A stretch of 64,000 nucleotides of DNA from a virus: IMG/VR virus record IMGVR_UViG_3300045941_000223, positions 1 through 64,000 of that record. One strand, 5' to 3'. Within the stretch, counting starts at the first letter, position 1. The number at the start of each line of letters is the position of its first letter. A program made the position numbers and the translations under genes. Shown one piece after another: positions 3,250 through 23,304 of this stretch. The notes beneath the pieces were generated by a model. The model was given only the letters and a program-made list of their open reading frames with translations, made no database searches and was not told where the DNA came from.

Positions 3250-3465
3250 ATGATCACGGCACTGATACAATTGGTAATCTATCTGATCGTCCTTGGCGTG
3301 GTCGCGTGGTTGCTGGTCTACCTGATCGATCACGTGCCGATGCTGCAGCCGTTCGCGCAGGTGGCGCGCACCATCATCATGGTGGTCTGCGTGCTGATCG
3401 CCATCCTTCTCCTTCTGCAATTCGTCGGCCTGATCGACGGCGGGGCCCGCTTCCCGCGCCTCTGA
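3250..3465 (+). CDS. Two-TM membrane protein (holin-like candidate)
   Basis: Two long hydrophobic helices, 71 aa. Confidence 0.6.
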   Translation: MITALIQLVIYLIVLGVVAWLLVYLIDHVPMLQPFAQVARTIIMVVCVLIAILLLLQFVGLIDGGARFPRL

Positions 3466-3531
3466 GTCGCGGGTAATTCCCAAGGGCGAGTACCCGCGGC
3501 TGGCACCAGCGCCCGATATCATGCGTCCGGA

Positions 3532-3939
3532 ATGACGGCGACCCAAATTCCGCTCAAGCAGGATTTCACCGTCTACGGCGGCGACGGCGTCTCCTATCTG
3601 TTCACCTTCCTGCAGTCCGGCAGCGTACCGATGGCGCTCGAAGGAACGTGGCTGGCGCAGGTGCGCGACAAACCATCGCCGCTCGGCAAGGTGATCTGCA
3701 CGTTCGAGATCGACGGCAGCGAGATGGCCAACGGCAAGCTCTATCTCTCGCTCAGCGGTGAATCGACCAGCTACATCGCCGCCATCGGCCGCGCCTATTG
3801 GGATCTCGAACAGATCATGCCCGACAGCCACCCCCGCACGTGGTACAGCGGCATGATCTGGGGCAAGGCCGGGATCAGCCGGGTCGAGCCGGTACCGACC
3901 CGGATCGGTGCGGTACCGCCACGCCTCCGGAGAGCGTGA
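3532..3939 (+). CDS. Virion accessory protein (Ig-like/BppU-like adaptor)
   Basis: GD...F....L.G.W.AQVR...G.L.LSL....T...YWDLE pattern resembles baseplate-upper-like domains. Confidence 0.55.
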   Translation: MTATQIPLKQDFTVYGGDGVSYLFTFLQSGSVPMALEGTWLAQVRDKPSPLGKVICTFEIDGSEMANGKLYLSLSGESTSYIAAIGRAYWDLEQIMPDSHPRTWYSGMIWGKAGISRVEPVPTRIGAVPPRLRRA

Positions 3940-4412
3940 TGCCCACCGCCACCATCGAAGTCATCACCAACGTCGTCACCACCGGACCGCAAGGACCGCG
4001 CGGACCAGCCGGGCCGCAAGGTCCGCCCGGTCCGCCCGGCCCAGCCGCATCCAACGGTGTGCTTTCGGCGCAATATTCCGCCAAGGTGACGACGACGGAG
4101 GCGGAATATCCCGGCGACGGCAAGGTTGTCTGGAATACAGCGGCGCAAGGCGACGCCACCGAGATTTACATCTCGCAAAAGACAAGCGGCAACACCGATA
4201 TCAGTCACGCGCTTGCGGCTGTGCAAGCTGGCCAGCAATTGACGATACAGCGCAAAACCGACGCGGAAATCATCGCGCGCTACACGGTCAATGCCGTCAG
4301 CGATCACGGCACATGGTTTACCTTCAGCGTATTGCCGGGAAGCAATTCGGGATTGCCTTTCGGCGGCGGCGACGCGCTGATCATTGCTCTGAGCGCACAA
4401 CCGATCGCGTGA
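3939..4412 (+). CDS. Short collagen-repeat fibre-like protein
   Basis: MPTATIEV...GPQGPRGPAGPQGPPGPPGP followed by a beta-rich domain. Confidence 0.65.
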   Translation: MPTATIEVITNVVTTGPQGPRGPAGPQGPPGPPGPAASNGVLSAQYSAKVTTTEAEYPGDGKVVWNTAAQGDATEIYISQKTSGNTDISHALAAVQAGQQLTIQRKTDAEIIARYTVNAVSDHGTWFTFSVLPGSNSGLPFGGGDALIIALSAQPIA

Positions 4413-4416
4413 CGCC

Positions 4417-4923
4417 GTGCGATCATCTCTCCCGACACCATCACCCGCGCCCAGCTCGCTCGCGCAGATTCGCGCCGAGCAGGCCAAGGAGCTGGAGAAT
4501 GCCGCCGTGCGCGACAAGCTCTATGCGTACACGCTCGCCGAGGTCGGCGGGCAGGGCGATCAGGCACGACAGGCGTTCATGGAAACCATCCTGAACCGCG
4601 CCGCCTCGCGCGGGCAGTCGATCAGCAAGACCTTGTCCGGCAGCTACTTCCCGAAGGCGACCCACAACAAGGCGGCGCGCGGCGTCACCGACAAGCAGCG
4701 CGCCGAGCTGCAGCCGCTGCTCGATGACGTTCTCGCCGGAAGCAACATCACCGACTACGCCACCGGCAACGCGTCCGGGCCCGAGTACGCATTCGGCAGC
4801 AGCGGATACTTCGGGCAGGGCAAGGGTCGCGGCGTCACCGCGGGCTTCGGCGGCGAGGTCTTCGGTGTCGAAGAGGTCGATGTGGCGTGGGCCGAGCGCG
4901 TCTCTGAAAGCGACGTGGCGTGA
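4417..4923 (+). CDS. Cell-wall hydrolase-like protein (SleB/Hydrolase_2-like)
   Basis: TLAEVGGQGDQARQAFMETILNRA resembles the catalytic Glu...NR signature. Confidence 0.5.
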   Translation: MRSSLPTPSPAPSSLAQIRAEQAKELENAAVRDKLYAYTLAEVGGQGDQARQAFMETILNRAASRGQSISKTLSGSYFPKATHNKAARGVTDKQRAELQPLLDDVLAGSNITDYATGNASGPEYAFGSSGYFGQGKGRGVTAGFGGEVFGVEEVDVAWAERVSESDVA

Positions 4924-5990
4924 TCTTCTGGATCGCTCCCGAGTACGGCAATATGTGCATCGACAACTGCTCGCTGAGCGCGCTCGATCTGTCGTCGATC
5001 GATCCCACCATCCGCATGGTGCAGTGGCAGGAAAATGCCGGGCGCATCGAACGCAAAACCGGTCCGGCATTGCGCGAGGTCTTTCTCGATCCGATACCCT
5101 ATCTGCCGTCGTTCGACCTGTTCATCACCACGCTGAACGGGCAAGCGCCGCCGATCACGCTCGATCAGGCCAAGAAGATCAAGATCGATCTCAATCGCGC
5201 CATCTTCGACGCCAAGCGACAGGCACCGATCGAATATCTCGCGAAGACATGGGACGCGACCGACGACGAAGTGACCGCGATGAATAGCGAGCTGTCGATG
5301 GTCTCGGCACTGAGCGGCGGCGGCTCTGCGACCGATATCATCACGCTGTCCAACAACCTGAACCAACTCGCCTTCGAAGTTAACAGCCGCGTGGTCGCGC
5401 CCGGCAACAATGCCGATGGCAACATCTGCCAGCAGGTGAACTTCAATGTACGGGGCGCGGTCAATACCATCGTCGATCAGGCGAATTATTCGCTCGCCTA
5501 CAACAAGTCGCTGGTGATCGGCGCGGTCAATGCCGACGTGGTGACGCCGCTCAAGGACAACACCTTCCCGAAGATCCAAGGAAAGTTCGATGCGTACGAA
5601 ACCCGGTTCGAAGCGGCGAGCTGGCCCGGCGGCGTGCCCGGCGACTATCCACCCGATCCGCCCAACATCACGCCGATCAACGACGGGGTATATATTCCGA
5701 GCGGAATCACACAGCTTGCCGCCGCGCTGAGCGCCCCGCCCGGCATGACCAACGTCACCGTACCGGCAGGCGGCGGCGATCCGGCTGATACGACCATCGA
5801 GTGGTATGCGCTCGGCGAGCTGACGCCCACCGTGCTCACGGTCGTGGAGTTCTCCGGGCTGATCAACACCATCAGCGCGCGACGGGCAGTGCTGGCGCAG
5901 ACGCAGCGCACCAAGCGCGCGGAAATTCTCGCATGCAGCACAGTCGCACAAGTAATCGCCATCGACCTCGCCAGCGGCTGGCCGACGTAA
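4920..5990 (+). CDS. Tail-fibre-associated protein
   Basis: N-terminal IRMVQWQENAGRIE and C-terminal AEILACSTVAQVIAIDLASGWP resemble tail-fibre assembly proteins. Confidence 0.55.
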   Translation: MIFWIAPEYGNMCIDNCSLSALDLSSIDPTIRMVQWQENAGRIERKTGPALREVFLDPIPYLPSFDLFITTLNGQAPPITLDQAKKIKIDLNRAIFDAKRQAPIEYLAKTWDATDDEVTAMNSELSMVSALSGGGSATDIITLSNNLNQLAFEVNSRVVAPGNNADGNICQQVNFNVRGAVNTIVDQANYSLAYNKSLVIGAVNADVVTPLKDNTFPKIQGKFDAYETRFEAASWPGGVPGDYPPDPPNITPINDGVYIPSGITQLAAALSAPPGMTNVTVPAGGGDPADTTIEWYALGELTPTVLTVVEFSGLINTISARRAVLAQTQRTKRAEILACSTVAQVIAIDLASGWPT

Positions 5991-6009: not shown

Positions 6010-7962
6010 GTGCGATCGGCACTGGCCCGGACTGCGGGTCAGATTGAGACCACACTGTTGCACGCTCCGAACAGAAATCTCTGGAAGATAGCCAGCGCGC
6101 AGGCGCTGGCGAGGCTCGATCGTCCGCAGCAATGGGCGGTCGCGCAGGCGAAGGCGAAGAAGATCCTTGGCATCTCGCTGCTCGGTCCTGACGTGGTCGA
6201 GTTGCGGGAGTTCGATCCCAACCAGCCACGCGACGAGCACGGCCGCTGGACGGACACCGGGGCAGGCGACGGTGGCGGGCTCGCCGAAGACACGCCCGGG
6301 GGATACGAGCCCGAGCTAGATCCGGAAGTCGTCAACGTCGGCGGCGACAAGTGGAACAAGGACACCGCCGTCCATCTGGAGCGCGAGTACCAGATGGCCA
6401 AGCCGAAGCTCAGCAAGATCGAGAGCGAGGCGGTCGGCAAGTATCCACGGGGCAAGCCGCCATCGCAGCTTCTGGAGTGGAGCGAGCTGAGCAAGGACGA
6501 CCGAGAAGATGTCAAGAACCAATGGATGGAGAAGCAGGTTCCGTTCTACCACAAGAACGAGGTCGGTCACTGGAAGGCAAATGACGGGGTCAGCGACGCC
6601 AAGGACAAGGTGACCGACGACTTCAACGACCGGACGACGATGATTTGGGCCGCAAAGGCGATCAACGAGTATTTCGAGGAAATGGAATCGAAGCTGACCG
6701 AGCAGGCCGACCGACCTTCCGACAGCGCCGAGGTTCAGGCAGCGCTGCACGCCGAGATCCCGTTCGAGGCCGCACAGCTTCTCGATGCCGTCCGTCTGGA
6801 ATATGACCGGGACGCCGACGACCCGGCAATCACCGTCAAATGGGACGACAGCAAATTGCAGGAACCGGCGTACGGTCCAAAGCCGGGCGCTCTGTTTGAT
6901 CCAGATCAGCAACGATTGCCCGGCATCGAAGAGCCGAAGAAGCCGGATATGTCCAAGCTGCTGACCGATAAATACCGCAAGGATCTGGCCGCGCAGATCG
7001 AGCTTGCGGCATTTGAGGAAGTCAAGGATGTGCGCGATGCGATGGAGCCGCCGGAATATCTGCTGGATGCCGCAAAGGAGGCCGCCGACGCCGATTGGGA
7101 AGGCTTGAGCGATAACAGCAAGTTGTCCTACGCCCAAAACTTCGCCGCGGACGAAGAGACGAGGAACCCGCCGGTGCCATGGGTCCGGGCGGTTCCGGAG
7201 AGCTACGATCCGCTCAATGAGACGGTCGGGTTGGACTACAAAGATACGCAAGGCATGGCGCGGCACATGAGCATCGAGCGGGCCGCCGATCTGCTGATCG
7301 AGCGCGACATAGTCAACCCGGCCAATCGCATCGATATCGTCAAGCGCATCGCCTCCATCGATCGCAAGCTGTGGGAAGATTGGAAATCAAGCTCGACCAC
7401 TCAAAACGGCAAGCTGCTGCAGATCGCGGTCGCGGATGAATTGAACGGCCGTCTCAATATGAAGACGCGCGACACCATGAATCAAATGGAGACGAAGACC
7501 TACGCCAACAAGCAATTCAAAGAGATCGGCGGCTACGCGGGCGTGCGCGCCTACGTGCGCGCGAAGTGGGAAACCACGCAATTCATGCTCGACAAGGCCG
7601 ATGTCAAGGAGCTGAGCCTGTACCGCTCCATCGATCTCGACATGGATACTCTCGGTCCGCATCTGACGAAGTCGAAAGAGATCGGTGGCCATCATTACCT
7701 GCCGAGCATCGCGGTCCAGCGCAACGGTGCGGCTTCGACCACCATCGACAGCAAGGTGGCCAACGATTGGGGCGACGGGCAGACGCGCGTCGTGCTCCGC
7801 GCGCTGGTGCCGCGCACCGCGGCGGTGTCGGTCCCGGCCTACGGCGTGAACATCCAGAGCGAGCATGAGGTCGTGATCGCAGGCACCGCGTGGAAGGGCT
7901 GGGACGCGTGGCACCGTCGCGCCCCGAGCCTTCTTGAGATCGAGCTGCAGCGGGCCGCCTGA
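6010..7962 (+). CDS. PRD-GRWT-tagged effector 1: C-terminal R-S-E ADP-ribosyltransferase-like
   Basis: FDPNQPRDEHGRWTD at 6211; LYRS...ASTT...SEHEVV motifs at about 7618-7875. Confidence 0.75.
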   Translation: MRSALARTAGQIETTLLHAPNRNLWKIASAQALARLDRPQQWAVAQAKAKKILGISLLGPDVVELREFDPNQPRDEHGRWTDTGAGDGGGLAEDTPGGYEPELDPEVVNVGGDKWNKDTAVHLEREYQMAKPKLSKIESEAVGKYPRGKPPSQLLEWSELSKDDREDVKNQWMEKQVPFYHKNEVGHWKANDGVSDAKDKVTDDFNDRTTMIWAAKAINEYFEEMESKLTEQADRPSDSAEVQAALHAEIPFEAAQLLDAVRLEYDRDADDPAITVKWDDSKLQEPAYGPKPGALFDPDQQRLPGIEEPKKPDMSKLLTDKYRKDLAAQIELAAFEEVKDVRDAMEPPEYLLDAAKEAADADWEGLSDNSKLSYAQNFAADEETRNPPVPWVRAVPESYDPLNETVGLDYKDTQGMARHMSIERAADLLIERDIVNPANRIDIVKRIASIDRKLWEDWKSSSTTQNGKLLQIAVADELNGRLNMKTRDTMNQMETKTYANKQFKEIGGYAGVRAYVRAKWETTQFMLDKADVKELSLYRSIDLDMDTLGPHLTKSKEIGGHHYLPSIAVQRNGAASTTIDSKVANDWGDGQTRVVLRALVPRTAAVSVPAYGVNIQSEHEVVIAGTAWKGWDAWHRRAPSLLEIELQRAA

Positions 7963-9443
7963 TGGTCGAGACTCTGAAGGTCGATATTCTGCAGACGGAG
8001 CTGGAGCAGAATCTGCCCTACTGGCTCGATCCGTCGCAGAAGAACGCCGAGCGGCACGCCGAGATCCGCGCCAAGCACCGGCAGCGATGGCTCGACGAGC
8101 AGAAGCGCGAGAAAGGCTGGAAGCGGGCCAAGCAGGACGCGTGGTTGCTGCTCCGCAAGTATGACGAAAGCGAGCACCCGCGGGACGAACGCGGACGCTG
8201 GACCGATGCAGGCGGCGGTGACGGTGGTAAGCCCGACGTTGGCACCGGCTCCGAGAAGTCCAAGGGCGACTGCATGTCGGCCGCCTACAAATGGATCAAG
8301 GAGCATCCGGAGGAAACGCTGGTCCACGGCATGGTCACCAGCGACGGCAAGCGCTTCCCGCACGCGTGGGGTGAGGACAATGACGGCAACGTCCACGAGG
8401 TCAGCAACGGACAGAACGTGGTCGTGCCGCGGGCCGAGTACTACGAGCGCTTCGAGGTCAAGCCGGACGATCCCGCCGAGTATCACCGCTACACGCACAC
8501 CGAGGCGCTGGTCCAGTCGGTGCGGGCAGGGCATTATGGCCCATGGGATATCAGCGAGGAAACGGTCGATCTCGATCGGCTCGAAGAGAGCACCGGCGGC
8601 GGCTACCGCAAGCCCGGCAAGAAGCCCAGCGATCTATCGGATTTTCTCGGCAAGGAACGGGTGCAGATTTCCGACAATGTGGACGATCCTCACAACCTGA
8701 TCAAGAATTGGAACAAGTACATCGGCATGGACCCGGAAGAGTTCGCCGATAGTTTTTTCGGCGCGAGGTACAAGCCGCAAATGACGGTCAGCTACGGTGC
8801 GGGTCAAATCTATGTCGATGCCTTGCTGCAGAATCCAAGGACCGGAGAACATCTCGCATCGGTGTCGCGGTTTATCAACGGTCCGAAGAACCGGGCCACC
8901 GCATCGTTCTTCGAGGTTGACTCGGCTCAGCAGGGCAAGGGCATCGGCAAGCAGGTGACCGCCAGTAACGTGAAAATGTACGCAGACCTTGGCATCACCG
9001 AGGTTCACGCACGCTGCAACATCAATGTAGGCGGATATGCGTGGGCGAAGTACGGCTACGTGCCACGCGATCGAGAGGCATGGGAGGAATTGGCCGATAA
9101 GGTTCAGGAAAAGCTCGAAAACATGGACGAAGATGATGTCTCGGACCAAGAGCGCGAAACGATCATCGAGCTAATCGACAATCCAGATCCCAAGGCGGTG
9201 TGGGCGATTGCTGATTCCGAGGTCGGCAAGGAGCTGCTGACCGACACCGAGTGGGACGGCGTGCTCGACCTGACCGACAAGGAAGTGCTCGAACGGCTGA
9301 ACGCCTACATCGGCACCAACATCAAGCCGGTGAAACCGAAGCCTTTCGACGACGAAGACGACGATGATGATTTCGACCGGCCGGTGACGGTCAGGCCGGG
9401 CGATGAAGATGATGATGACGATGACGATCGCATCGACCCATAA
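7962..9443 (+). CDS. PRD-GRWT-tagged effector 2: Cys-His peptidase/transglutaminase-like + GNAT
   Basis: YDESEHPRDERGRWTD at 8160; GDC...LVHG...HAW; QQGKGIG acetyl-CoA motif and VGGYAWAKYGY; acidic tail. Confidence 0.75.
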   Translation: MVETLKVDILQTELEQNLPYWLDPSQKNAERHAEIRAKHRQRWLDEQKREKGWKRAKQDAWLLLRKYDESEHPRDERGRWTDAGGGDGGKPDVGTGSEKSKGDCMSAAYKWIKEHPEETLVHGMVTSDGKRFPHAWGEDNDGNVHEVSNGQNVVVPRAEYYERFEVKPDDPAEYHRYTHTEALVQSVRAGHYGPWDISEETVDLDRLEESTGGGYRKPGKKPSDLSDFLGKERVQISDNVDDPHNLIKNWNKYIGMDPEEFADSFFGARYKPQMTVSYGAGQIYVDALLQNPRTGEHLASVSRFINGPKNRATASFFEVDSAQQGKGIGKQVTASNVKMYADLGITEVHARCNINVGGYAWAKYGYVPRDREAWEELADKVQEKLENMDEDDVSDQERETIIELIDNPDPKAVWAIADSEVGKELLTDTEWDGVLDLTDKEVLERLNAYIGTNIKPVKPKPFDDEDDDDDFDRPVTVRPGDEDDDDDDDRIDP

Positions 9444-11232
9444 GACCGGTGAGCTGTTCTACGTCGATGACGCAGGCGAGCGGCAGGACGCTTCGCTGCA
9501 TCAGGAAATCCTCGACGAAGGCGATCATCTCCGCGCGCTCGCGGTCTCGCGCAAGGTCATGCGGCGGCTCGGGCTCGATCCCGACGTGCTGCTCAAGCAG
9601 AAGGCATTCGATCCGTCGCAGCCGCGCGACGAGCACGGGCGATGGACCGATACCGGCGGGTCGGACGACAGCCTCGCCGAAGATACGATCGGCGGCTACG
9701 ACCGCATCCCCGGGCTTCCGCCCGGCACCAAGATCCGCGATCCGAGTGACAGCATCGCCACCGCGCTCAATCGCGACGCGTTCGATATGACCGCCGAGAA
9801 GAAAGAGCGCGGACCGTTCGACGACGGCGACACCTACCATCTGACCATCACGTCGAAGCTCGCTCCCGGCATCGAGCCATTCGAATCTCGGCCGGGCCAG
9901 ACCCGCTACTATGATCCCCGGCTGGCGCGTCTGGAAACCATCGACGCCGGGACAATCATAGAGAGGACTTATGCGAGACCGAAAGACACAGACGCGACGG
10001 AAATCCAGCCGCTCGAAGGCGAGAAAATCATCTATCGCGGCATCTCGGCGGAAGAGTACCAAGCGATCCTCGAAACCGGCAAAGTCTCGTCGAAGGGCGA
10101 ATACAACATCGGTGAGGACCAGCGAGGACTGACCTACTGGACGACAAAGCCCAACACGGCGGCGTCCTACGCCAGCGGCTTCGCTCCATGGCAATTCGCG
10201 CCAACCTTCACCAAGCCCGCCTACGTGATCGCCGCCCGCATGCCGGAAGAAACCCGCGAGGTTCCCGGCACCGGCGAGAACGAGGTCGGCGTCGCCCGCC
10301 CGATCGAGCGGAGCGAGCTGCTGGCGGTGTGGCGGGGCGATGTCTACTCGCACACGCCGGGCGAGATCGATCTGAAGCAGATCGGCTCTTCCGATACCTA
10401 CCGGATGGGCTCGGCCTCACATCCGAACAGCCCCGTGGTCTGGAGCCGGGAAGATCAGGGTCTCGCCGAGGACACGGTTGGCTATGCCAACCCTGCCGAA
10501 GAGACCACCGAGAAGGCCACGGTCGGCGGCCGGACCTACCCGGTGCGCGACAACAAGAACCACGTGATTGATACCTCCCGCATGCGCGGGGCGGCGATCG
10601 TCTATGACGACAACACGGTGTCGATCCTGCACGTCACCGACACCCCGGAGCGGGTCGAGCAAGGGCTGAACGATGCGCCCGAGGATCTGACCACCGCCTT
10701 CGGCAACGTCGGCGACGATCTCGGCGCTGGCTTCTACGGTTCCGCAGTGCCGCAAATCTGGATGTCACGATCGGCGGGCAAGTGGGACTTCCTGTCGAGC
10801 ATGACCAGCGCGCAGAAGCAGGACTACGTGACCTACCTGCGCGGCAAGATCGAACAGCAGCGCTCGGTGAAGTACATCACCGCCAACGAGTACGAGCGCG
10901 CGGTCCGCGATCTCGGATACTTCGAGAGCGGGCAGACCGACTACATCACATGGTCCGCCGAGCAGCCCTACAACATCGAGTCGTGGAAGCCCGAGACGCT
11001 GGCCACGCTCGGCATCACCCCCGGCAAGCAGCCCGAGGTCATGGACATTCGCCTGCGGGGGAGGTTCGTCGATCTCACGGCCGGGGGCTTCCGGCAGTCC
11101 GACGTGGAAGAGCTGCAGAAGCGCGGGTACGACGGTGCCTACGTGCAGGGCTCATTCTCGTACACCCCGCAATTCGTGATCTGGAACAAGGCGGCGATCA
11201 CCGAGATCAAGCGCTCCAAGCATGCCCGTTGA
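9421..11232 (+). CDS. PRD-GRWT-tagged effector 3: two ADP-ribosyltransferase-like domains
   Basis: FDPSQPRDEHGRWTD at 9607; IYRGIS...YWTT...A..YA...ENEVGV; second domain HVT...LGAGFY...GYDG...QFVIWN (ART-PolyVal-like). Start uncertain (9403-9421). Confidence 0.65.
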   Translation: MTIASTHKTGELFYVDDAGERQDASLHQEILDEGDHLRALAVSRKVMRRLGLDPDVLLKQKAFDPSQPRDEHGRWTDTGGSDDSLAEDTIGGYDRIPGLPPGTKIRDPSDSIATALNRDAFDMTAEKKERGPFDDGDTYHLTITSKLAPGIEPFESRPGQTRYYDPRLARLETIDAGTIIERTYARPKDTDATEIQPLEGEKIIYRGISAEEYQAILETGKVSSKGEYNIGEDQRGLTYWTTKPNTAASYASGFAPWQFAPTFTKPAYVIAARMPEETREVPGTGENEVGVARPIERSELLAVWRGDVYSHTPGEIDLKQIGSSDTYRMGSASHPNSPVVWSREDQGLAEDTVGYANPAEETTEKATVGGRTYPVRDNKNHVIDTSRMRGAAIVYDDNTVSILHVTDTPERVEQGLNDAPEDLTTAFGNVGDDLGAGFYGSAVPQIWMSRSAGKWDFLSSMTSAQKQDYVTYLRGKIEQQRSVKYITANEYERAVRDLGYFESGQTDYITWSAEQPYNIESWKPETLATLGITPGKQPEVMDIRLRGRFVDLTAGGFRQSDVEELQKRGYDGAYVQGSFSYTPQFVIWNKAAITEIKRSKHAR

Positions 11233-13027
11233 TCCGCACCCGCAAGAGACCCGTACCGATTTCATGAACCGGTGCTGCTTCGAAACCGGTCGCGCCGAGC
11301 CCGGGTGGAGCAACGACGCCGTGGCGGCGGCCTGCTTCAGCGCATGGGGGCGCTCGCGCGCCAACAAGCAGGCGGCATGGCAAAACGCTCGGGGAAGGGC
11401 CATATCTACCCTGCGGTTCGACCCGAACCAGCCGAGAGACGAATATGGCCGATGGACCGACGCAGGCGGATCAGGACTTGCTGAAGGACTTGACGAAGGA
11501 AGACCGGGAGCTGGTGCTGTCCACGGTGAAAAATCACCCCGGCCTTTCGATCGAAGAAGCCCTACGGATGTTGAAAGCAGCCGGAATGTAGTCGCGGTCT
11601 GGACCCGCGGCAGTCACACATTCCATGAGCTGAACGCTGACGGTGCCGGGCGCTTCAGCGTCGCCATCCAATCGGCCAAACATTCCAATCCGTACGGGGC
11701 GTCGGTCCACGCCTACCCGACCAGAGCCTACGAGTACATGCGGACGTTCGTGTCGCCGAACGGCGACTACGGCTTCGCCCTCAAGGGCGACGATATCGTC
11801 TCGCTGTTCAAGAACCCGAACTCGGATCAGCCCGGTGTGGCTGGCGCGGCGATCGACCTCGCCGTACAGCAAGGCGGCCGACGCGCCGACGCATTCGATA
11901 CCGTCCTGCCGGACCTCTACGCCAAGCACGGCCTGCGGGTGGTCGCGCGCCTCGCGTGGGACGACAAGGAAGCACCGCCCGGCTGGGACAAGAAGACCTA
12001 CCAGAAGTTCAACAACGGCGAGCCGGACGTGGTGTTCATGGTCTACGACCCGGCCTCGACGACCTATACCGCTGGGCAGGGCGAGCGGGTGGACGAGTAC
12101 GACGACGGCAAGGCGACGCAGGACCGGGAGCTGGAGGCGATCGACGCCGCCAAGCCACCGGAACCGCCGCCGCCACCGAGACCGGAGCAGCCGCGGTTTG
12201 GATTCGGGGAGGCCGATCCCAAGCTGGAGATCAACCGGCAGATATCGGCCGATTACGTGCTGCGAGAAGGCAGGCGCACCGACACCGAGCACCTGCGCTG
12301 GATCGATCTGGCCACCGGCGAGCTGTCACCGGAGATCGAGGAAGGTACCGAAAAGGAAGTCGGCTTCGGGCCCGAGCTGGGAAAGGCGCTGGACGATCCG
12401 TCCCGCGCGATCGAGGTTGATCACAATCACCCGAACTCCAGCCCGCTCTCGGTGCAGGATCTGGCCATTCTCAGCACCAAGCCGGGATGTTACGGCGTGC
12501 GGGCGCTCGGCCACGACGGCAGCATCTATGCCGCCAGCCGACCAGCGAGGCATGACATTCGTGGCGCATTCAAGAAGGCGAGGGGGGCGCAGTACACCGA
12601 CGCCGACGAGTTTCTGGTCGATGAGATCACGTCGGAAAAGATGGAGCCGGATCGGGGTACGAAGATTTTCTTCCATGCCGTCAGCGATGCGCTCGGACGC
12701 AACGGCTGGTTCGATTACGGCTTCCGCCTCGCGCCCGATCTCCAGCGCGATATCGATCGGCTGAGCAAGGAGTACAACGCACTGGTCGCCGACATGCAGA
12801 AACGCGCCGGGCCGCCGCCGACGTTCGCAGGCAGATCGATCGATATCGATTGGGAGAAGTACCCGGTGCCGAATGCCTTCATCGATCCGCCCGGCGAGTA
12901 CGAGCCGCTGGACGAGTGGATCAGCTATCGGAAGGAACTCGACGAGCTGAGCCATCTCCCCGGCATCGAGCCGTTCAAGCAGGAAGCCGACGAAATCATC
13001 GAGCGCAAGCGGAGGCAGCAGAAATGA
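11222..13027 (+). CDS. PRD-GRWT-tagged effector 4: capsid-like N-domain + GNAT-like + JAB/MPN
   Basis: FDPNQPRDEYGRWTD at 11417; DIVSLF...GGRRADAFDTVLPDLYAKHGL; HNHPNSSPLSVQD JAB motif at about 12422. Confidence 0.7.
   Translation: MPVDPHPQETRTDFMNRCCFETGRAEPGWSNDAVAAACFSAWGRSRANKQAAWQNARGRAISTLRFDPNQPRDEYGRWTDAGGSGLAEGLDEGRPGAGAVHGEKSPRPFDRRSPTDVESSRNVVAVWTRGSHTFHELNADGAGRFSVAIQSAKHSNPYGASVHAYPTRAYEYMRTFVSPNGDYGFALKGDDIVSLFKNPNSDQPGVAGAAIDLAVQQGGRRADAFDTVLPDLYAKHGLRVVARLAWDDKEAPPGWDKKTYQKFNNGEPDVVFMVYDPASTTYTAGQGERVDEYDDGKATQDRELEAIDAAKPPEPPPPPRPEQPRFGFGEADPKLEINRQISADYVLREGRRTDTEHLRWIDLATGELSPEIEEGTEKEVGFGPELGKALDDPSRAIEVDHNHPNSSPLSVQDLAILSTKPGCYGVRALGHDGSIYAASRPARHDIRGAFKKARGAQYTDADEFLVDEITSEKMEPDRGTKIFFHAVSDALGRNGWFDYGFRLAPDLQRDIDRLSKEYNALVADMQKRAGPPPTFAGRSIDIDWEKYPVPNAFIDPPGEYEPLDEWISYRKELDELSHLPGIEPFKQEADEIIERKRRQQK
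11445..11591 (+). CDS. Overprinted 48-aa ORF nested in effector 4 (+1 frame)
   Basis: MADGPTQADQDLLKDLTKEDRELVLSTVKNHPGLSIEEALRMLKAAGM*; GAGAG upstream; helical pattern. Confidence 0.55.
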   Translation: MADGPTQADQDLLKDLTKEDRELVLSTVKNHPGLSIEEALRMLKAAGM

Positions 13028-14136
13028 CCGCCACCGTCGATGGACGCCCGGCCACGCTGGCCTACTTCAAGGGCGAGTTCGATCCGGCGAGCGAGGCCGA
13101 CGCCACCTTGGTGCAAATCACCTTCATGGACGCCCGCGGCGGATCGCACTTCTACGTGCCCGATCCCGCCAAGCGCGAAGCCGAGAAGCGATCGATCCAA
13201 TGGAAGCGGGCCAAGGCCAGAGCGCAGGTGTTGCTGCGCGAGTTCGACGAGAGCAAGCATCCGCGCGACGAGCGCGGACGCTGGACGGACGGCGGGGGCG
13301 GCGACGACAGTCTCGCCGAGGACACCGAGAGCGGGTACGGGAAGAACCCGACCGCCACCGAGATTTACGAGAGCTACAAAACGCCGACGATGGAAGAAGT
13401 GCGGGCGCGGCTGAGCCCGCGTGATATCGAAGAGATCGATCAGGCCAAGCGCGATATGGAAGGTCGCATTCCGACCATGGCGCAATTCAAGCAACCGGAC
13501 GGCAAGTACACTCCGGAACGCGTGGCAGTGCACGCCGACATTATCAAGAACAAGATGAAGCTGTTCAGCCCGGAGAACATTGCCAAGTACACGCCACCAG
13601 CAGGCGAGAAGCCATTGGTGACGCTGGTCGGTGGGCGACCAGCCAGCGGCAAAACCACGTCGCTACCGGCTGAAATTATGGAATCGAGCCTATATATATC
13701 CGCAGACGACGTGCAGGAACATTTGCCCGGATACGAGCCCCGGCTGGCTGGCCTGTTCAACGGCGAGGCGCAAGAGATTGGCGATCGTATCGAAGAGATG
13801 GCCCGCGAGCTGAAGATCAACGTCATCTTCGATTCGACTATGAAGACGCAAAAAACCGCCGCCGGGCGGCTTGCGGCCTACCAGCAGGCGGGTTACGAGG
13901 CGGACGGGTACTTCGTCAGCACGTCGCCGATCGAATCGGCCGTGCGGACGGTCGGCCGGTTCCGGCACAAGAAGGGCGACTACAGCGGGCGGTTCGTGCC
14001 GCCGGAAGTGACGATCGCCAGCACGACCAACGAGAAGACATTCGACTCGCTGAAGTCGGAGTTCCGGAGCTGGAAATTGTTTGATAACAACGGGGACAAG
14101 CTCAAGCTGGTCGCCGAAGGTGGAAAAGGGAAGTAG
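13024..14136 (+). CDS. PRD-GRWT-tagged effector 5: zeta-toxin-like P-loop kinase
   Basis: FDESKHPRDERGRWTD at 13243; GGRPASGKTT, ISADD, NVIFDSTM, GRFVP motifs. Confidence 0.8.
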   Translation: MTATVDGRPATLAYFKGEFDPASEADATLVQITFMDARGGSHFYVPDPAKREAEKRSIQWKRAKARAQVLLREFDESKHPRDERGRWTDGGGGDDSLAEDTESGYGKNPTATEIYESYKTPTMEEVRARLSPRDIEEIDQAKRDMEGRIPTMAQFKQPDGKYTPERVAVHADIIKNKMKLFSPENIAKYTPPAGEKPLVTLVGGRPASGKTTSLPAEIMESSLYISADDVQEHLPGYEPRLAGLFNGEAQEIGDRIEEMARELKINVIFDSTMKTQKTAAGRLAAYQQAGYEADGYFVSTSPIESAVRTVGRFRHKKGDYSGRFVPPEVTIASTTNEKTFDSLKSEFRSWKLFDNNGDKLKLVAEGGKGK

Positions 14137-14139: not shown

Positions 14140-14319
14140 ATGAAGCCATTGCCAAAGCGCACCGACCGCGGGCCGCTCATCGTCGAGACGCCAGCCGGTC
14201 CGCTCTACGCGGACGACACCTATGGCGAGGGATTTAACCCTCCGAAGCCGGATGATCCGTTGATGCAGGCGATCAGGCAGGGGATCGCCGAGGACAAGGC
14301 CAAGGCCGGGAAGTCCTAG
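14140..14319 (+). CDS. Small protein downstream of the zeta-like gene (candidate antitoxin)
   Basis: 59-aa ORF MKPLPKRTDRGPL...AGKS*, 3 nt after the zeta-like stop; below the ORF-track cutoff. Confidence 0.5.
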   Translation: MKPLPKRTDRGPLIVETPAGPLYADDTYGEGFNPPKPDDPLMQAIRQGIAEDKAKAGKS

Positions 14320-14519
14320 GCCGCGTTGGCCGTGGTTTCGGTCTCTTTGCTCTCCCAGCAGGCCAGATGACCGTTCCATCGGATCGTATGGTTACCGAAC
14401 ATCACGCGGACCTCGCGCAAGGTCAGGTTGGCGGGAACCAACCCCATCAGCGTGCCGTTCGCTCCGACGACTTTAACGAGCCGGGCCGTCACCGGTCCGT
14501 CTCTGATCAGGCGGGTCAT
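14316..14519 (-). CDS. Hypothetical protein
   Basis: Strong GGAGG RBS, directly downstream of a repeat promoter. Confidence 0.6.
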   Translation of the reverse strand: MTRLIRDGPVTARLVKVVGANGTLMGLVPANLTLREVRVMFGNHTIRWNGHLACWESKETETTANAA

Positions 14520-14543
14520 TAGTCTTACCTCCCTTCCAATACT

Positions 14544-14573
14544 AATATAGGGCGTAATGGCCTACATTTCAAG
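14544..14573 (-). promoter_or_regulatory. Sigma70-type promoter with TAGG-N9-CCTA operator
   Basis: CTTGAAA-N17-TATATT on the - strand; dyad 14548-14564. Confidence 0.8.
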
Positions 14574-14831
14574 ATGCCGCTCGTAATCCATCCTCGCCAC
14601 GTCTTCCGGCGAATGCTTCTTGCGCACCATCAGCCGCAGCAGCATGGCGGTGGCGCGCGGGATCGGGGCCTCGCCCAGCGCCCAGCGCCGCGACGTGCGC
14701 GGGCCGACGCCGATGAACCTGCCCGCCTGAACTTGATTCAGGTCGAGCGCGTCGATCGCTTCTCGGTACTGTTCTTTGGTCATGACGCGCTTCGCGGTCT
14801 TCTTCTTGGTAGCGGTCTTGCGCTTGGCCAT
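14562..14831 (-). CDS. Xre/Cro-like HTH regulator
   Basis: LDLNQVQAGRFIGVGPRTSRRWALGEAPIP helix-turn-helix; flanked by operator copies. Confidence 0.85.
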   Translation of the reverse strand: MAKRKTATKKKTAKRVMTKEQYREAIDALDLNQVQAGRFIGVGPRTSRRWALGEAPIPRATAMLLRLMVRKKHSPEDVARMDYERHLEM

Positions 14832-14854
14832 GGGAACCTCCGCATCTGCGGCAA

Positions 14855-14884
14855 CTCCTAGGACGTAATGGCCTAGCTCGCAAG
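14855..14884 (-). promoter_or_regulatory. Promoter/operator copy upstream of the HTH gene
   Basis: CTTGCGA-N17-TAGGAG (weak -10); dyad 14859-14875. Confidence 0.7.
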
Positions 14885-15478
14885 AGCCTGCTCAGGGTTG
14901 TGAACACATCGCCGGACGAGTTCCTGATGCAAGAGATCGGACATATCCCAGCTCCCGCCGTTGATCCGGCGATCGGTCGCTCGGTCGATGTAGGGGCCGA
15001 ACCCGCTGGAATGCAGCAGCTTGAACTCGGCAGGGTTAACGCCGTGCCTGCGGCAGGCGGCCTCGAACGCCCGGCGGCCGAACTCTTCGGAGTACTTCCG
15101 GTCGGTAAATACATAGTCGGAGCCGAACCGGACCTTCTCGGCCCTGAACGAAGGCTGCAGCTCCGATCGGGACTCGACCATGCCCATGGAACTCGCGGTG
15201 CCCTTGGTCTCGGCGAACGTCGCCGAACCGTCCGGCATCAGCCATGCGTACTTCGAGTACTTCAGGTCGATCATGCCGTCGAAGCCGCCACCGGCGTAAG
15301 CGTTGGTGACCGCCTCGACCATCTTGGTGGTCGGGCCGTCCGTCCAGCCGACTCGGATCGAGGCTCCACCGGAGTAGGTGTGCGATCGGACCGAGAATTT
15401 GACGCCCGGGAATGCCTTCTTCAGGGCGACCCGGATCAGCTTGGCAGTCTCGGCGCAGCTCAGGTAGCGGGTAGTCAT
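14873..15478 (-). CDS. LPD29-like domain protein
   Basis: YLSCAETAKLIRVALKKAFPGVKFSVRS..YSGGASIRVGWTDGPT. Confidence 0.75.
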   Translation of the reverse strand: MTTRYLSCAETAKLIRVALKKAFPGVKFSVRSHTYSGGASIRVGWTDGPTTKMVEAVTNAYAGGGFDGMIDLKYSKYAWLMPDGSATFAETKGTASSMGMVESRSELQPSFRAEKVRFGSDYVFTDRKYSEEFGRRAFEAACRRHGVNPAEFKLLHSSGFGPYIDRATDRRINGGSWDMSDLLHQELVRRCVHNPEQALAS

Positions 15479-15660
15479 TTCGTTCCTTTCGTCATGGTGA
15501 AGGGATAGGCCAGCGCGGTCAGGTAACCGTCGCGGGCAGCGAGGATGGCAGCACCAGCATCGGTTATGTCGAGAGCGCAGGCATCGCACCGCTCGATCGC
15601 TTCGCGGCCATCGGCTCGCTCGACAATCAGGTAGCGCTTGTCGTGGCAGGTATCGCACAT
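15475..15660 (-). CDS. Small Zn-finger-like protein
   Basis: CDTC...IERCDAC. Confidence 0.55.
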   Translation of the reverse strand: MCDTCHDKRYLIVERADGREAIERCDACALDITDAGAAILAARDGYLTALAYPFTMTKGTK

Positions 15661-15674
15661 CAGATGATCTCCCT

Positions 15675-15893
15675 TCACTCTTCGTTCGCGCCCCAATCGC
15701 AGCCGTGCTCTTTCGCCTTCTTGGCGGCGAAGCGATCGGCGGCGCGGCGGGCTTCGGCGTAGTCGCGGTAGGCGTCGCCCTCGACGCCCCACTCGAACTC
15801 GCCCTGATCGAAGATGTCGTTGCCTTCGTCGTCGAGCCCGTAGACGTGGATCTGGCGCTGCAGGCGGTTCACATCGACGTAGACATAGGTCAT
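15675..15893 (-). CDS. Hypothetical protein
   Basis: MTYVYVDV..., GAGAGG RBS. Confidence 0.55.
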   Translation of the reverse strand: MTYVYVDVNRLQRQIHVYGLDDEGNDIFDQGEFEWGVEGDAYRDYAEARRAADRFAAKKAKEHGCDWGANEE

Positions 15894-15907
15894 GTCAGTC
15901 CTCTCGC

Positions 15908-16069
15908 TTAAAACCGGATCTCGAAGTCGATCTCGCCGTTGCGTTCCGGCGTCTTCTCCGGAGGCGGCACCGGGATCGGGAGGTAGAGCGGCAGTCGCCG
16001 TTCCTCGAACTCGCGGTCTTCGCGCTCGCGGCGGCGGCGCAGCTCTTCGATCATCCAACCGGGCAACAT
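15908..16069 (-). CDS. Hypothetical protein
   Basis: MLPGWMIEELRRRRERE...; coupled to the upstream ORF. Confidence 0.55.
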   Translation of the reverse strand: MLPGWMIEELRRRREREDREFEERRLPLYLPIPVPPPEKTPERNGEIDFEIRF

Positions 16070-16200
16070 CAGTAGACCTCCGTTCCGGGCACCAGCCACT
16101 TGCTGCCGCCCCAATAGTCCACGACGAACAGACCAAACTCGGTGTATTCGAGGTAGATCCAGAGCTTCTTCTTCAGCTCTGCCTTCCAGATAGTCTTCAT
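16069..16200 (-). CDS. Small hypothetical protein
   Basis: MKTIWKAELKKK...; start uncertain. Confidence 0.45.
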   Translation of the reverse strand: MKTIWKAELKKKLWIYLEYTEFGLFVVDYWGGSKWLVPGTEVY

Positions 16201-16330
16201 GGTTCTTTCCAGATGTGCGGGGCTCGGGAGGTTCGTGCCTCCCGTCCCCATCTTGGACGCGGCGGTTCGCCCCGCGCCTGCGGGAAGGATGGTTCCGACT
16301 TCGGTCTTGGCCATTTCTCCCTCCACCATA

Positions 16331-16368
16331 CATATAGGGCGTAATGGCCTATAGGGCAAGGGGGCCTA
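16331..16368 (-). promoter_or_regulatory. Promoter with two abutting TAGG-N9-CCTA boxes
   Basis: Boxes at 16335-16351 and 16352-16368; CTTGCCC-N17-TATATG. Confidence 0.8.
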
Positions 16369-16647
16369 CGGACTATCTTGGACGTGCATGGCAATATGTT
16401 CCAATTCCGCAATTATCTTGTGAATAACGGTCAGCCGGGCACGATGCTCGGCAAGCGCTTCGTTGATGGCCGTTGGTCCGGACGGGTAGTAGTCGCGCCC
16501 GTTGGGCGCGCTGGCGGCTATCGCCTTCTCGGCCTCGCGAAGGGCGTGGATCGCGGCGATGTAGCCGTTGAAGAGATCGTCCCGGTGCGTGCCGTTCAGG
16601 TGGACGACCGGCAGGGTTAAGGCGTGCAGCGAGTTTCTAATCAGCAT
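16366..16647 (-). CDS. Hypothetical phage protein
   Basis: PVVHLNGT...PNGRDYYP. Confidence 0.65.
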   Translation of the reverse strand: MLIRNSLHALTLPVVHLNGTHRDDLFNGYIAAIHALREAEKAIAASAPNGRDYYPSGPTAINEALAEHRARLTVIHKIIAELEHIAMHVQDSP

Positions 16648-16828
16648 CGATCGGCTCGTCGCTCCAGTAATTGGGGTCGGTCAGCACGTCCGGCCGGTAA
16701 CCGGCCATCTTGCGCTTGTGGCAGACCACGCAGGTCCGGCAGAGCGGAATCCCGCGGGCGTCGTATGCCCATGTGGACGGTCGGCCAGAGCCGCAGGGGC
16801 AGGGGCTGGCTCGGTAGCGGTCGGTCAT
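16637..16828 (-). CDS. Small Zn-binding protein
   Basis: CPCGSG...DARGIPLCRTCVVC. Confidence 0.65.
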   Translation of the reverse strand: MTDRYRASPCPCGSGRPSTWAYDARGIPLCRTCVVCHKRKMAGYRPDVLTDPNYWSDEPIDAD

Positions 16829-17061
16829 GCTTTCCACCTTCTCTTTGTCAGCTCTTGCGCCTGATCGAGCAGGCCGCGTTCCTTCAGCAGGAAGTAGGGC
16901 AACTTCTCGATTTCGTGGAGCGGCAGCGCGGCGAGCGGCTTGCCTGCATCGAAGTAGCAGCGCGGATGCGCGTAGTGCCGGGTGCCGTACTTGACCAGCT
17001 CGTCGGACGGCACCATCGGCCCCTTGCAGAACCGGCAGCTATTCCAGCGCTCGCGCCACAT
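16825..17061 (-). CDS. Small Zn-finger-like protein
   Basis: CRFC...KYGTRHYAHPRC. Confidence 0.6.
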   Translation of the reverse strand: MWRERWNSCRFCKGPMVPSDELVKYGTRHYAHPRCYFDAGKPLAALPLHEIEKLPYFLLKERGLLDQAQELTKRRWKA

Positions 17062-17064
17062 CGC

Positions 17065-17250
17065 TCAGTACTCCGACGTTCCGTCCGCGTATTCCTTGCG
17101 GACCAGCACGTGCAACGCCTCGATCTCGTCGTCGCTGTACTTGTTGGTCATCCACGCCAGAGCTTCAGCGAGATGCTTGATGCCCTCGCGCACCACCCGC
17201 TCGCCTTCGTATCCGGCGTTCTCGACCACGGTGTAGGTCTTTGGTTTCAT
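17065..17250 (-). CDS. Hypothetical protein
   Basis: GGAGG RBS; part of a coupled run. Confidence 0.6.
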   Translation of the reverse strand: MKPKTYTVVENAGYEGERVVREGIKHLAEALAWMTNKYSDDEIEALHVLVRKEYADGTSEY

Positions 17251-17262
17251 CCATCCCTCCGT

Positions 17263-18833: not shown

Positions 18834-18836
18834 CGC

Positions 18837-21048: not shown

Positions 21049-23304
21049 ATGCCGATGAAGCCAAAGGATGGCGAGAGCCGATCGGATTTTCTCAGCCGCT
21101 GCGTCCCCGAGATGATGGGTGACGGGAAGCGCGAGAAGGATCAGGCGGTCGCAGCCTGCATCAGCATGTACGGGCAGAAGGGATACCTCGAAGCGGGCGG
21201 GCACTGTGAGCCAGAGCCCGGCGAGGACTACAACGATTTCATCGAACGCTGCATCGATGAAGGTGGCGACGAAGAAGAGTGCCACCTGATCTGGGAAGAC
21301 GAGGGCGAGAAGTCCGCCAGCGGCCGTCGCCTCAAGCACAAGACGCACGCGTCGCCGAGCGAGAGCGGGATGATGTTCATCCTGAGCGACGACACGCCCG
21401 ATCGGATGGGCGACGTGATCGTGGCCGAGGGCTGGGATCTTACGAACTTTCGAAAAAATCCCGTGGCTCTCTTCAATCACAATCCGGATTTTGTGATCGG
21501 CATGTGGAAGTCGTTGTGGATCGAAGGCAATTCTCTGCGCGGGCATCTGCAGCTCGCGCCCGAGGGAACCTCCGCTCGCATCGACGAGATCCGCAAGCTG
21601 GTCGATGCAGGAATCTTGCGTGCCACTTCGGTCGGCTTCCGTCCGATCGACAGTGAACCGCGCAAGTCGTCGGAGCCGATGGGCGGCATCACCTACAAGC
21701 GTTGCGAGCTGATCGAGACCTCACTGGTCGCGGTGCCAGCCAACCCCAACGCTCTGGCGGTCGCCAAGTCACTCCGCGTTTCGTCCGGGACGATCGATCT
21801 CGTTTTTGCCAAGCACGGCAAGGGAAACGGGAACGCTCGCCGGGGCGCTCACGGCAAGCACGCCGACACGTCTCGAAGTGGAAAGTCCAAAGCCATGACT
21901 ACACTGGCGCAACGCGTCACAGACGCACAGGCCCGGTTGCTGAACTTGCGTGACCAGCTCACCGAGCATCTGAAGTCCGTCGATGACACTGCCGTCACCG
22001 ACGAGCAGATCACGCTCACCAACGAACTCAATGCCAAGATCACGCAGGAAGAGAAGGGGCTTGGCGCTCTGCGTGACGCCGAAGCGAGGCTGGCCAGCGC
22101 GGCCAACAACGCCAGCGGCGGCGGCGACGGCGGTAACGGTGGCGGCACCGTCGTGAAGAATGGCGGCAGCGTCGATACCGCCAAGCGGCCGTTCGGCCTG
22201 CCGGTGCGCAAGATGGACCCGCTCGAATATCTCGTTCGCGCGGGCACCGTGCGCTATATGTCGAAGGTCACCGGCGACAGCATCGACGTTTGCCGACAGA
22301 AGATTTACGGCAACGACGAAGCCACCAAGGTGATCGTCGATTACTGCGCCAAGGCGGCAAGCGCTCCAGCGTTGACCACGGTTGCGGGCTGGGCGGCCGA
22401 GCTGGTCCAGCAGGTCAACGCGTCGTTCATGGAAACCCTGCAGCCGCAGGCGGTGTTTCCGCAGTTGTCGGCACTCGGCATGTCGCTGAGCTTCGGGCGC
22501 AACGGTCGCATCGCCGTTCCGACTCGGGCGGCGACGCCGACCATCGCGGGATCGTTCGTCGGTGAAGGTCAGCCGATCCCGGTCCGTCAGGCCGCATTCT
22601 CGTCGGTGCTCTTGACCCCCAAGAAAATGGCCGTGATCACCAGTTGGTCCAGAGAGATTGACGAGCATTCGGTGCCCGCGATCGAGGGCTTGCTGCGCAA
22701 CGCGATCCAAGAGGACACCGCGGTGTCGATCGACTCGGTGCTGCTCGACAGCAACGCGGCGACCGCCATCCGTCCGGCTGGCATTCGCAACGGCGTGGTC
22801 GGTCTCACGCCGACCGCGGGCGGCGGGTTCGCCGCACTGGTGGGCGATATCAAGCAGCTCACCGGCGCACTGCTGACGGCCACCAACGGCAACATCCGCA
22901 ACATGGCCTTCATCATGAACCCGCAGCAGGCGCTGAGCATCAGCCTGATCCAGCCACCAGTCCCGGGCGGGCTGTTCCCGTTTGCCGACGAAGTGGCGGC
23001 CGGGCGGTTGCGCGGTGCCAAGCTGATCACGTCCGGCACCGTGCCGGTCTCCACCGTGATCTGCATCGACGCTGCGGACTTCGTGGTGGTCGGAGGCGAA
23101 GCCCCTCGCTTCGAGATCAGCGATCAGGCGACGCTTCATATGGAGGATACGACTCCGCTGCCGATCGTCGCGGGCACCACCGCTGCCGATCCGACGCGTT
23201 CGTTGTGGCAGACGGATTCGCTCGCTCTGAGGCTCATCCTTCCTCTGAATTGGGCTCTCAGGCGCACCGGCACCGTCTCTTGGCTCACCGCGGTCACGTG
23301 GTGA
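21049..23304 (+). CDS. Prohead protease (HK97/S78-like) fused to major capsid protein
   Basis: DRMGDVI...NPVALFNH...SVGF...ETSLVAVPANPNA; coiled-coil delta-like region; HK97-fold motifs FVGEGQPIP, LTPKKMAVI, SLWQTDSLALR. Confidence 0.93.
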   Translation: MPMKPKDGESRSDFLSRCVPEMMGDGKREKDQAVAACISMYGQKGYLEAGGHCEPEPGEDYNDFIERCIDEGGDEEECHLIWEDEGEKSASGRRLKHKTHASPSESGMMFILSDDTPDRMGDVIVAEGWDLTNFRKNPVALFNHNPDFVIGMWKSLWIEGNSLRGHLQLAPEGTSARIDEIRKLVDAGILRATSVGFRPIDSEPRKSSEPMGGITYKRCELIETSLVAVPANPNALAVAKSLRVSSGTIDLVFAKHGKGNGNARRGAHGKHADTSRSGKSKAMTTLAQRVTDAQARLLNLRDQLTEHLKSVDDTAVTDEQITLTNELNAKITQEEKGLGALRDAEARLASAANNASGGGDGGNGGGTVVKNGGSVDTAKRPFGLPVRKMDPLEYLVRAGTVRYMSKVTGDSIDVCRQKIYGNDEATKVIVDYCAKAASAPALTTVAGWAAELVQQVNASFMETLQPQAVFPQLSALGMSLSFGRNGRIAVPTRAATPTIAGSFVGEGQPIPVRQAAFSSVLLTPKKMAVITSWSREIDEHSVPAIEGLLRNAIQEDTAVSIDSVLLDSNAATAIRPAGIRNGVVGLTPTAGGGFAALVGDIKQLTGALLTATNGNIRNMAFIMNPQQALSISLIQPPVPGGLFPFADEVAAGRLRGAKLITSGTVPVSTVICIDAADFVVVGGEAPRFEISDQATLHMEDTTPLPIVAGTTAADPTRSLWQTDSLALRLILPLNWALRRTGTVSWLTAVTW

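Follow-up and report, generated by a model that had tools for sequence, protein, structure and literature searches.

The virus record IMGVR_UViG_3300045941_000223 of IMG/VR has a length of 77 kb, and the 64,000 nt analysed here, referred to as the window, make up most of it. The head and tail genes read from the window are those of a contractile-tailed phage with a G+C content of 63%. On the 3′ side of the large terminase gene lie five contiguous genes of the + strand (E1 to E5, 6010-14136), in each of which a leader of 59-71 amino acids (aa; L1 to L5) and a conserved tag precede the body of the protein (Table 1). Consecutive genes overlap by 1 nt (E1/E2), 23 nt (E2/E3), 11 nt (E3/E4) and 4 nt (E4/E5, ATGA), so that each of L2 to L5 abuts the preceding toxin gene, as had been noticed in an initial annotation made from the sequence; these stop/start overlaps are consistent with coupled translation. 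The same annotation had proposed that the leaders are immunity proteins, each directed against the toxin encoded upstream and fused to the N-terminus of the next one. We compared the cluster with about 100 related viral and prophage loci (L numbers of three digits; P numbers denote proteins), and the leader profiles were mapped together with the body modules over all the loci fetched.

Table 1. Coordinates of the cargo cluster, its leaders and the main phage genes in the window.
Feature	Position	Strand	Description
E1	6010..7962	+	L1 6010-6201; tag 6202-6315; helical E1a ~6310-7209; ADP-ribosyltransferase-type fold (modelled) E1b 7210-7959
E2	7962..9443	+	L2; tag 8154-8267; small E2a ~8247-8561; GNAT-type fold (modelled) E2b-E2c 8562-9340; acidic tail to 9440
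E3	9421..11232	+	L3; tag 9598-9711; E3a 9721-10455; E3b 10456-11229
E4	11222..13027	+	L4; tag 11408-11521; E4a 11522-12121; JAB-like (candidate) E4b 12182-12841; tail E4c 12842-13024
E5	13024..14136	+	L5; tag 13237-13350; zeta-toxin-type kinase domain 13588-14064
L2 (E2 aa 1-64)	7962..8153	+	homologues directly after E1a+E1b modules
L3 (E3 aa 1-59)	9421..9597	+	core motif E[FL]FYxxxxGxxxDxxLHxxIxxxGD
L4 (E4 aa 1-62)	11222..11407	+	Cys-pair mini-domain ETRTDFMNRC...AVAAACFSAW
L5 (E5 aa 1-71)	13024..13236	+	N-terminal domain M..T.xGRPATxAY...KVxFxD
Free 59-aa ORF	14140..14319	+	GC3 0.83; begins 3 nt past the E5 stop
Large terminase	1622-3139		~56% identity to terminases of proteobacterial phages
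Prohead protease-major capsid polyprotein	21049..23304	+	phrog_617, phrog_80
Portal	23697-25157		
Sheath	29333-30943		

The tag, ...LRxFDPsQPRDExGRWTDxGGGDxxLAEDTxGGY, is present in all five genes, with PRDE at aa 68-80 and its core, [FY]DxxQPRDExGRWTDxGGG, directly after each leader. It is the sole block common to the five genes at the nucleotide level, and the whole record contains exactly five copies, every one of them within E1-E5. A search with the motif PRDE[HRY]GRW recovered 74 viral loci. Among the relatives the tag also recurs inside single giant open reading frames (ORFs): one of 2912 aa (L010) carries nine copies, 310-350 aa apart and each placed after a module resembling ADP-ribosyltransferases (ARTs), and two others carry six (L029) and three copies (L013). 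Only about 30-45 aa lie between the end of an ART module and the next tag in these giant ORFs. The relatives have 2-9 modules per ORF, and in the window the set is split over five genes with one to three domains each. This arrangement points to the tag as a delimiter of cargo modules. No description of the PRDExGRW tag or of the leader mini-modules was found in the article on polyvalent proteins (PMC5512222) or by a literature motif search. A second GLAEDTVGY motif, lacking the PRDExGRW part, is found in E3 (aa 347-355, 10459-10485) at the boundary of its two domains, and may be a linker or processing motif able to act apart from the tag.

The position of tag-bearing genes in the relatives bears on their role. 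In the closest ones the order is terminase, tag genes, small leader unit, a protease-capsid polyprotein preceded by two L4 units, and portal. A single ORF of one relative (L038:9638-12361) runs from a tag through about 400 aa of cargo and two L4 mini-domains into the protease-capsid polyprotein, and would thus constitute a covalent fusion of cargo and capsid. In Afipia and related prophages (L098, L100, L101, L104 and L105) small tag proteins, whose leader is an (M)RPDAxRWLRP repeat, are encoded between a separate HK97-type prohead protease and the capsid gene (~7700-8650 and 10060-11230), so the tag is not limited to phages with a fused protease-capsid gene. Taken together, the operon order, the L038 fusion and the Afipia prophage positions indicate that the cluster belongs to the late head genes, and they fit packaged cargo.

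According to the initial annotation the segments before the tag differ completely between genes. This holds for the first ~35-50 aa, which are unrelated; the last ~20-25 aa before the tag form a common basic helix-like stretch (W+RA+A+A..LL+), and E2 and E5 share 67% identity over aa 45-87, E1 and E3 55% over aa 45-105. Leaders of four types are found in frame at the N-terminus of protease-capsid polyproteins as well: L2 in L046, L3 in P0185 and P0186, L4 in the window and its relatives, and L5 in L090. To judge from these placements, L2-L5 appear to be mobile, interchangeable mini-modules. L1 had no relatives among the ~100 related loci.

Two of the leaders are tied to the enzyme encoded upstream, and all the loci in which this was seen belong to one phage lineage (capsid polyprotein 46-60% identical). 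L2 directly follows the E1-type ART module in five loci of five (L009, L016, L046, L093 and the window), and a divergent copy, seen by eye and fused to another cargo, follows such a module in L063. L009, L016 and L093, the last of these a Bradyrhizobium prophage, encode it as a free ORF of ~60-75 aa; in L046 it precedes three L4 copies and the protease-capsid polyprotein within one ORF, and the window has it joined to the tag and body of E2. L3 was found right after the end of E2c, which closes the E2-type GNAT module, in all 11 non-redundant loci, whatever the content downstream: a free ORF of 63-73 aa followed by the protease-capsid gene (L006, L011, L025), or a unit fused to tag and zeta domain (L048, L085), to zeta without a tag (L082, L084), to an E4a-type domain and zeta (L086), to tag and other cargo (L008, L017) or to tag and E3 (window). 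The free small ORFs of both types overlap the stop codon of the enzyme gene.

A profile search of a large protein database added 28 free-standing L3 proteins of 47-92 aa, one of them from Bradyrhizobium barranii; a single-sequence search with L3 gave no matches, owing to the word-index limit. Another 27 proteins are longer: L3 stands at their N-terminus, followed by zeta, E4a-type or E3a-type cargo or by the protease-capsid polyprotein (P0185, P0186), or, in P0205, C-terminal to an E2 module. Its N-terminal form precedes at least five cargo types. L3 diverges together with its enzyme: its mean identity is 45%, against 48-55% for E2b and E2c, and the correlation of its divergence with theirs (r 0.76-0.78) is the same as that of E2b with E2c.

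For the enzymes themselves, Pfam, PHROGs and NCBIfam searches of E1-E5 returned, apart from a weak one for E2, two matches, namely Zeta_toxin in E5 (aa 189-347, Pfam, 1e-22) and phrog_2563 in E4, which is matched by E4a and has relatives in L006, L009, L011 and L086. The AlphaFold2 model of E1b (E1 aa 401-650) had a mean predicted local distance difference test score (pLDDT) of 88. When it was compared with solved structures by VIA-align, 13 of the 17 top chains were R-S-E ADP-ribosyltransferases (VIP2, Vis, Certhrax and C3 among others), with modest Z values of 4.5-6.1 over ~160 aligned residues, and the R, S and E residues are invariant in an 18-sequence family alignment. Foldseek alone gave no placement for E1b, and a PDB sequence search returned nothing. 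The model thus assigns E1b to the R-S-E ART fold. For E2 aa 201-493 (AlphaFold2 pLDDT 82) the top Foldseek matches were all GNAT acetyltransferases (5c82, E 9.4e-5, prob 1.0); a weak Pfam match to Acetyltransf_1 and, for E2b, a weak GNAT match in the PDB sequence search were also obtained, and the modelled fold of this region is that of GNAT.

Toxin-type catalytic domains at the C-terminus are recognised in E5 and, as folds, in E1b and E2b; the identities of the E3 and E4 domains are candidates at the level of motifs. E3 had no Pfam match and E3a no match in the PDB sequence search, the only relatives of E3a being found in L063 and P0184. E4b is called JAB-like from an HxHPx6Sx2D motif (HNHPNSSPLSVQD) and has a weak relative in L034; it gave no match in Pfam or PDB sequence searches. 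E4 extends ~75 aa beyond the end of this relative, a free-standing protein of 208 aa. As E4 is the longer of the two, its tail, which had been described as separate-looking, can be regarded as an add-on. No relatives of the tail were detected among the ~100 related loci. An LPGIEP motif is present in the tail (12980-12997), in E1a (6970-6987) and in every E1a-type region of the relatives; the form in E1a-type regions, usually [FY]DPxQxTLPGIEP, resembles the start of the tag, [FY]DPxQPRDE. The tail may be a fragment of an E1a-like region.

In zeta systems the epsilon antitoxin gene is normally found upstream of zeta. E5, with its Zeta_toxin kinase domain, likewise has a small ORF adjacent to it, the 59-aa ORF, which is the sole free ORF of the cluster and stands after the last toxin, just as first annotated; this ORF, however, lies downstream and lacks similarity to epsilon, while L5 and the tag occupy the region upstream of the zeta domain. 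Leaders fused to the zeta domain in the relatives are of the L3 or L5 type. No relatives of the 59-aa ORF were found in the ~100 related loci, in the window or in the ESM Atlas, and it matched no family. Its likeness to L3, suggested by eye, was dropped, since the L3 hidden Markov model did not detect it.

The behaviour of L2 and L3 brings the proposal of daisy-chained immunity into play in a partial form, in which these two leaders would be small inhibitors of the upstream enzyme (the ART of E1 and the GNAT of E2), keeping it inactive in the producing cell; here they would be fused to the next gene and be released or removed in the head, and L4 and L5 would have no part in immunity. The initial annotation had named a lack of linkage between leader homologues and the upstream toxin type as evidence against its proposal, and for L2 and L3 such linkage was found, regardless of what follows them. 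The free ORFs of 60-75 aa overlapping the enzyme stop codon and the 28 further free L3 proteins agree with it, and so do the two modelled folds, ART and GNAT both being classes that include toxins with cognate inhibitors. The layout is moreover that of the MuF polymorphic toxins (PMC5576092).

Neutralisation of an enzyme by L2 or L3 is, however, a proposal drawn from this layout, and several observations fit it poorly. Since the genes are those of a late operon, a lysogen would gain no protection from leaders that form part of their products. L2 and L3 are also found on protease-capsid N-termini, where hundreds of copies would come to lie inside the procapsid. L010 carries nine ART modules of the same family without such a unit between them. 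E2 and L3 form a conserved syntenic pair diverging at equal rates, with no sign of a hypervariable cassette, and the conserved core comprises only ~25 aa. We therefore regard inhibition by L2 and L3 as unlikely.

As a general logic, the chain of antidotes meets a further difficulty in L4 and L5, which do not show the upstream linkage. L4 matches the start of the protease-capsid polyprotein encoded in the window (aa 1-47, 38% identity, E 3e-5). The first ~95 aa of this polyprotein contain two L4-type mini-domains, and L4 homologues occupy the N-terminus of the polyprotein in 11 related loci (L006, L009, L011, L016, L017, L025, L037, L038, L046, L090 and L093). L5 represents a widespread type of 442 clusters at 50% identity, in which it nearly always covers residues 1-50. 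It is either free-standing or placed ahead of cargo, which by Pfam matches includes Acb1, topoisomerase IB, zeta and DUF7178 and, by eye, phosphatase-like and 2H-phosphoesterase-like sequences, so that it fronts enzymes which are not toxins. Tag variants often follow it. An L5 pattern search found only five loci, and the ESM Atlas yielded nothing usable for it. Its upstream neighbours vary, and in L090 it is fused to the protease-capsid polyprotein.

The expectation that leader homologues stand alone after the matching toxin was thus borne out for L2 (5/5, ART) and L3 (11/11, GNAT) and failed for L4 and L5; fusion of immunity to the next gene likewise keeps the upstream linkage of L2 and L3 in its favour and founders on L4, which is the N-terminus of the capsid polyprotein, and on L5, which has no linkage. 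The original proposal is partly supported overall, and its core, a general chain of antidotes made of the leaders, is not supported.

The variety of cargo behind a given leader also bears on the possibility that leader and tag act in cis, masking their own downstream enzyme like the pro-domain of a zymogen until they are cut off in the head. Removal of propeptides by prohead proteases is well known from T4 internal proteins and the ejection proteins of phiKZ and SPN3US (PMC7411985, PMC9026906), and the leaders occupy N-termini ahead of a Gly-rich linker. But L3 precedes zeta, E4a-type and E3a-type domains and the capsid polyprotein, and L5 precedes Acb1, topoisomerase IB and zeta; with the same leader ahead of unrelated enzymes, a specific fit to each active site is not to be expected, and we consider masking in cis quite improbable.

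The leaders might instead be functionless: an ancestral polyvalent protein would have been split into genes at varying points, leaving the linkers between its modules attached, and these would have been passed on through recombination at the conserved tags and through coupled translation. In favour of this, the relatives include covalent multi-tag giants, L3 is found on either side of a gene boundary (compare P0205, L011 and the window), L1 and the E4 tail have no relatives, and the tag is the only common block at the nucleotide level. Against this, L2, L3 and especially L5 retain strongly conserved motifs with invariant residues across 30-60% identity, which implies purifying selection on the peptides themselves, and L3 is retained at its position in L082, L084 and L086 although these have no tag after it. 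That the leaders are such remnants is accordingly doubtful in our view.

The explanation that we favour, with a confidence that does not quite reach even chances, is that the leaders belong to a tag-based system for loading capsid cargo, as propeptides or docking modules of the head interior, and that L2 and L3 are trailing units of the upstream module. The five enzymes would be late products of the head operon. In each of these cargo proteins the tag would delimit the cargo modules, as the same tag seems to do where it is repeated within the giant polyvalent proteins of the relatives, and leader and tag together would bring the protein into the procapsid, perhaps by binding either to the interior of the protease-scaffold-capsid polyprotein or to the cargo protein before it. 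Afterwards leader and tag may be cut off by the prohead protease, in the manner of the capsid-targeting sequences of T4 and the propeptides of phiKZ and SPN3US.

Under this cargo reading L4, the mini-domain that also begins the protease-capsid polyprotein, and L5, an N-terminal domain of many cargo proteins, would be generic modules, L2 the trailing unit of the E1-type (ART) module and L3 that of the E2-type (GNAT) module. Gene boundaries would have been set on either side of L2 and L3 in different phages, and L3 would appear as a C-terminal domain, a free ORF or the next leader because, as the trailing unit of the E2 module, it has been variously cut off from it. In the window L2 and L3 may link each cargo protein that carries them to the one encoded before it.

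A number of points weigh against this cargo reading. The presence of E1-E5 in the virion, the binding of tag or leaders to the capsid and the cleavage are all inferred from sequence, and a cleavage-site consensus could not be derived. The strict linkage of L2 to an upstream ART and of L3 to an upstream GNAT, with free small ORFs, is exactly the layout of MuF toxins and their immunity genes (PMC5576092). The counts for this linkage are inflated by shared ancestry, because all the linked loci are of one lineage, and they do not represent independent events. The in-frame fusions of leaders to the protease-capsid polyprotein, finally, could be artefacts of gene calling if an internal start is also used.

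A related possibility, which we hold to be rather unlikely, is a non-covalent daisy chain in which the leader, at least where it is L2 or L3, attaches during coupled translation to the C-terminal module of the preceding gene's product. The five enzymes would then enter the procapsid as a tethered string, the putative split-gene equivalent of a giant polyvalent protein, and the bound leader may also block the activity of the upstream enzyme up to the moment when the prohead protease cleaves close to the tag.

Among known systems, the phage polyvalent proteins, for which delivery with the DNA has been proposed (Iyer, Burroughs, Anand, de Souza and Aravind 2017, PMC5512222), resemble the cluster in their enzyme repertoire (ART, GNAT, JAB/RadC-like and kinases) and in their location in the head module of the phage. 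The relatives L010, L029 and L013 are true multi-domain giants of this sort, whereas in the window the modules are separate, coupled genes, each with a leader of its own. The cluster can thus be read as the polyvalent-protein theme split, as its sequence suggests, into separate genes.

Temperate phages also encode MuF polymorphic toxins, whose immunity genes lie downstream (Jamet et al. 2017, PMC5576092). The resemblance is that a protein of the head module ends in a toxin-type domain and a small, coupled ORF comes next, as seen in the relatives for the E1-type ART with L2 and for the E2-type GNAT with L3. As for differences, Pfam gave no match to the MuF domain (Phage_Mu_F) in E1-E5 or in eight relatives, the small unit is in many cases joined to the protein or capsid polyprotein that follows, and the enzyme-leader pairs are conserved, not hypervariable. 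In a tblastn search against cultured phages E2 gave weak matches only, to Barnyard gp61 and to a minor head protein of Alteromonas phage R7M; the latter match, with E2 aa 315-439, was the one link obtained to a MuF-type (Phage_Mu_F / SPP1 gp7) trafficking domain.

The third comparison is with the capsid-targeting sequences of T4 and the propeptides of phiKZ and SPN3US, which are N-terminal signals common to several internal head proteins and are removed by the prohead protease, and with the Dar proteins of P1, whose loading as cargo is ordered and dependent (PMC9026906, PMC7411985, PMC9024508). Here too an N-terminal element is common to several head-operon proteins, the tag in E1-E5 and the leader types on protease-capsid polyproteins. 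The candidate signal of the window, in contrast to those of T4, phiKZ and SPN3US, is longer (a leader of 60-70 aa and a tag of ~35 aa), modular, and placed internally in polyproteins as well.

The boundary between E2 and E3 has a particular structure. The 3′ end of E2 encodes a poly-Asp tail whose +1 frame reads as a run of ATG codons (MKMMMTM, 9403-9443), and several candidate starts of E3 lie inside the overlap, at 9421 or 9403. Programmed frameshifting was considered for this site and rejected, as no evidence for it was found and the overlap is the +1 reading of the poly-Asp tail, which creates the ATGs.

Around the cluster, none of the related loci has a counterpart of the four genes at 3250-5990, and an ORF with a collagen-like run (GPQGPRGPAGPQGPPGPPGP) is present between the terminase and the cargo genes (3939-4412, +). 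Between the cluster and the protease-capsid gene the head operon is interrupted by small genes of the minus strand (14316-20531). The cargo clusters of L048, L082, L084 and L086 also end with a zeta gene, and the reading frames there suggest a similar convergent minus-strand gene. No close relatives were found among cultured phages by megablast and tblastn. The host is probably a member of the Bradyrhizobium/Afipia group, since prophages in Bradyrhizobium, Afipia and Xanthobacteraceae genomes are the closest cellular matches.

Enzymes carried in phage heads serve to disarm the host or to take it over on entry, and to our knowledge little has been learned, beyond T4, P1 and the giant phages, of how such cargo is selected and loaded. 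The cluster and its ~100 relatives display a modular grammar, from leader mini-module to tag to enzyme, that is legible from the sequence by itself and occurs in prophages of alphaproteobacteria (Bradyrhizobium, Afipia) as well as in many uncultured phages. Should the tag and the leaders be loading or docking signals, injected effectors could be predicted from them, anti-defence enzymes like Acb1 among these, and the signals would provide handles for putting chosen proteins into capsids. If L2 and L3 prove to be inhibitors, they would represent a new way of wiring the control of toxins into a head operon.

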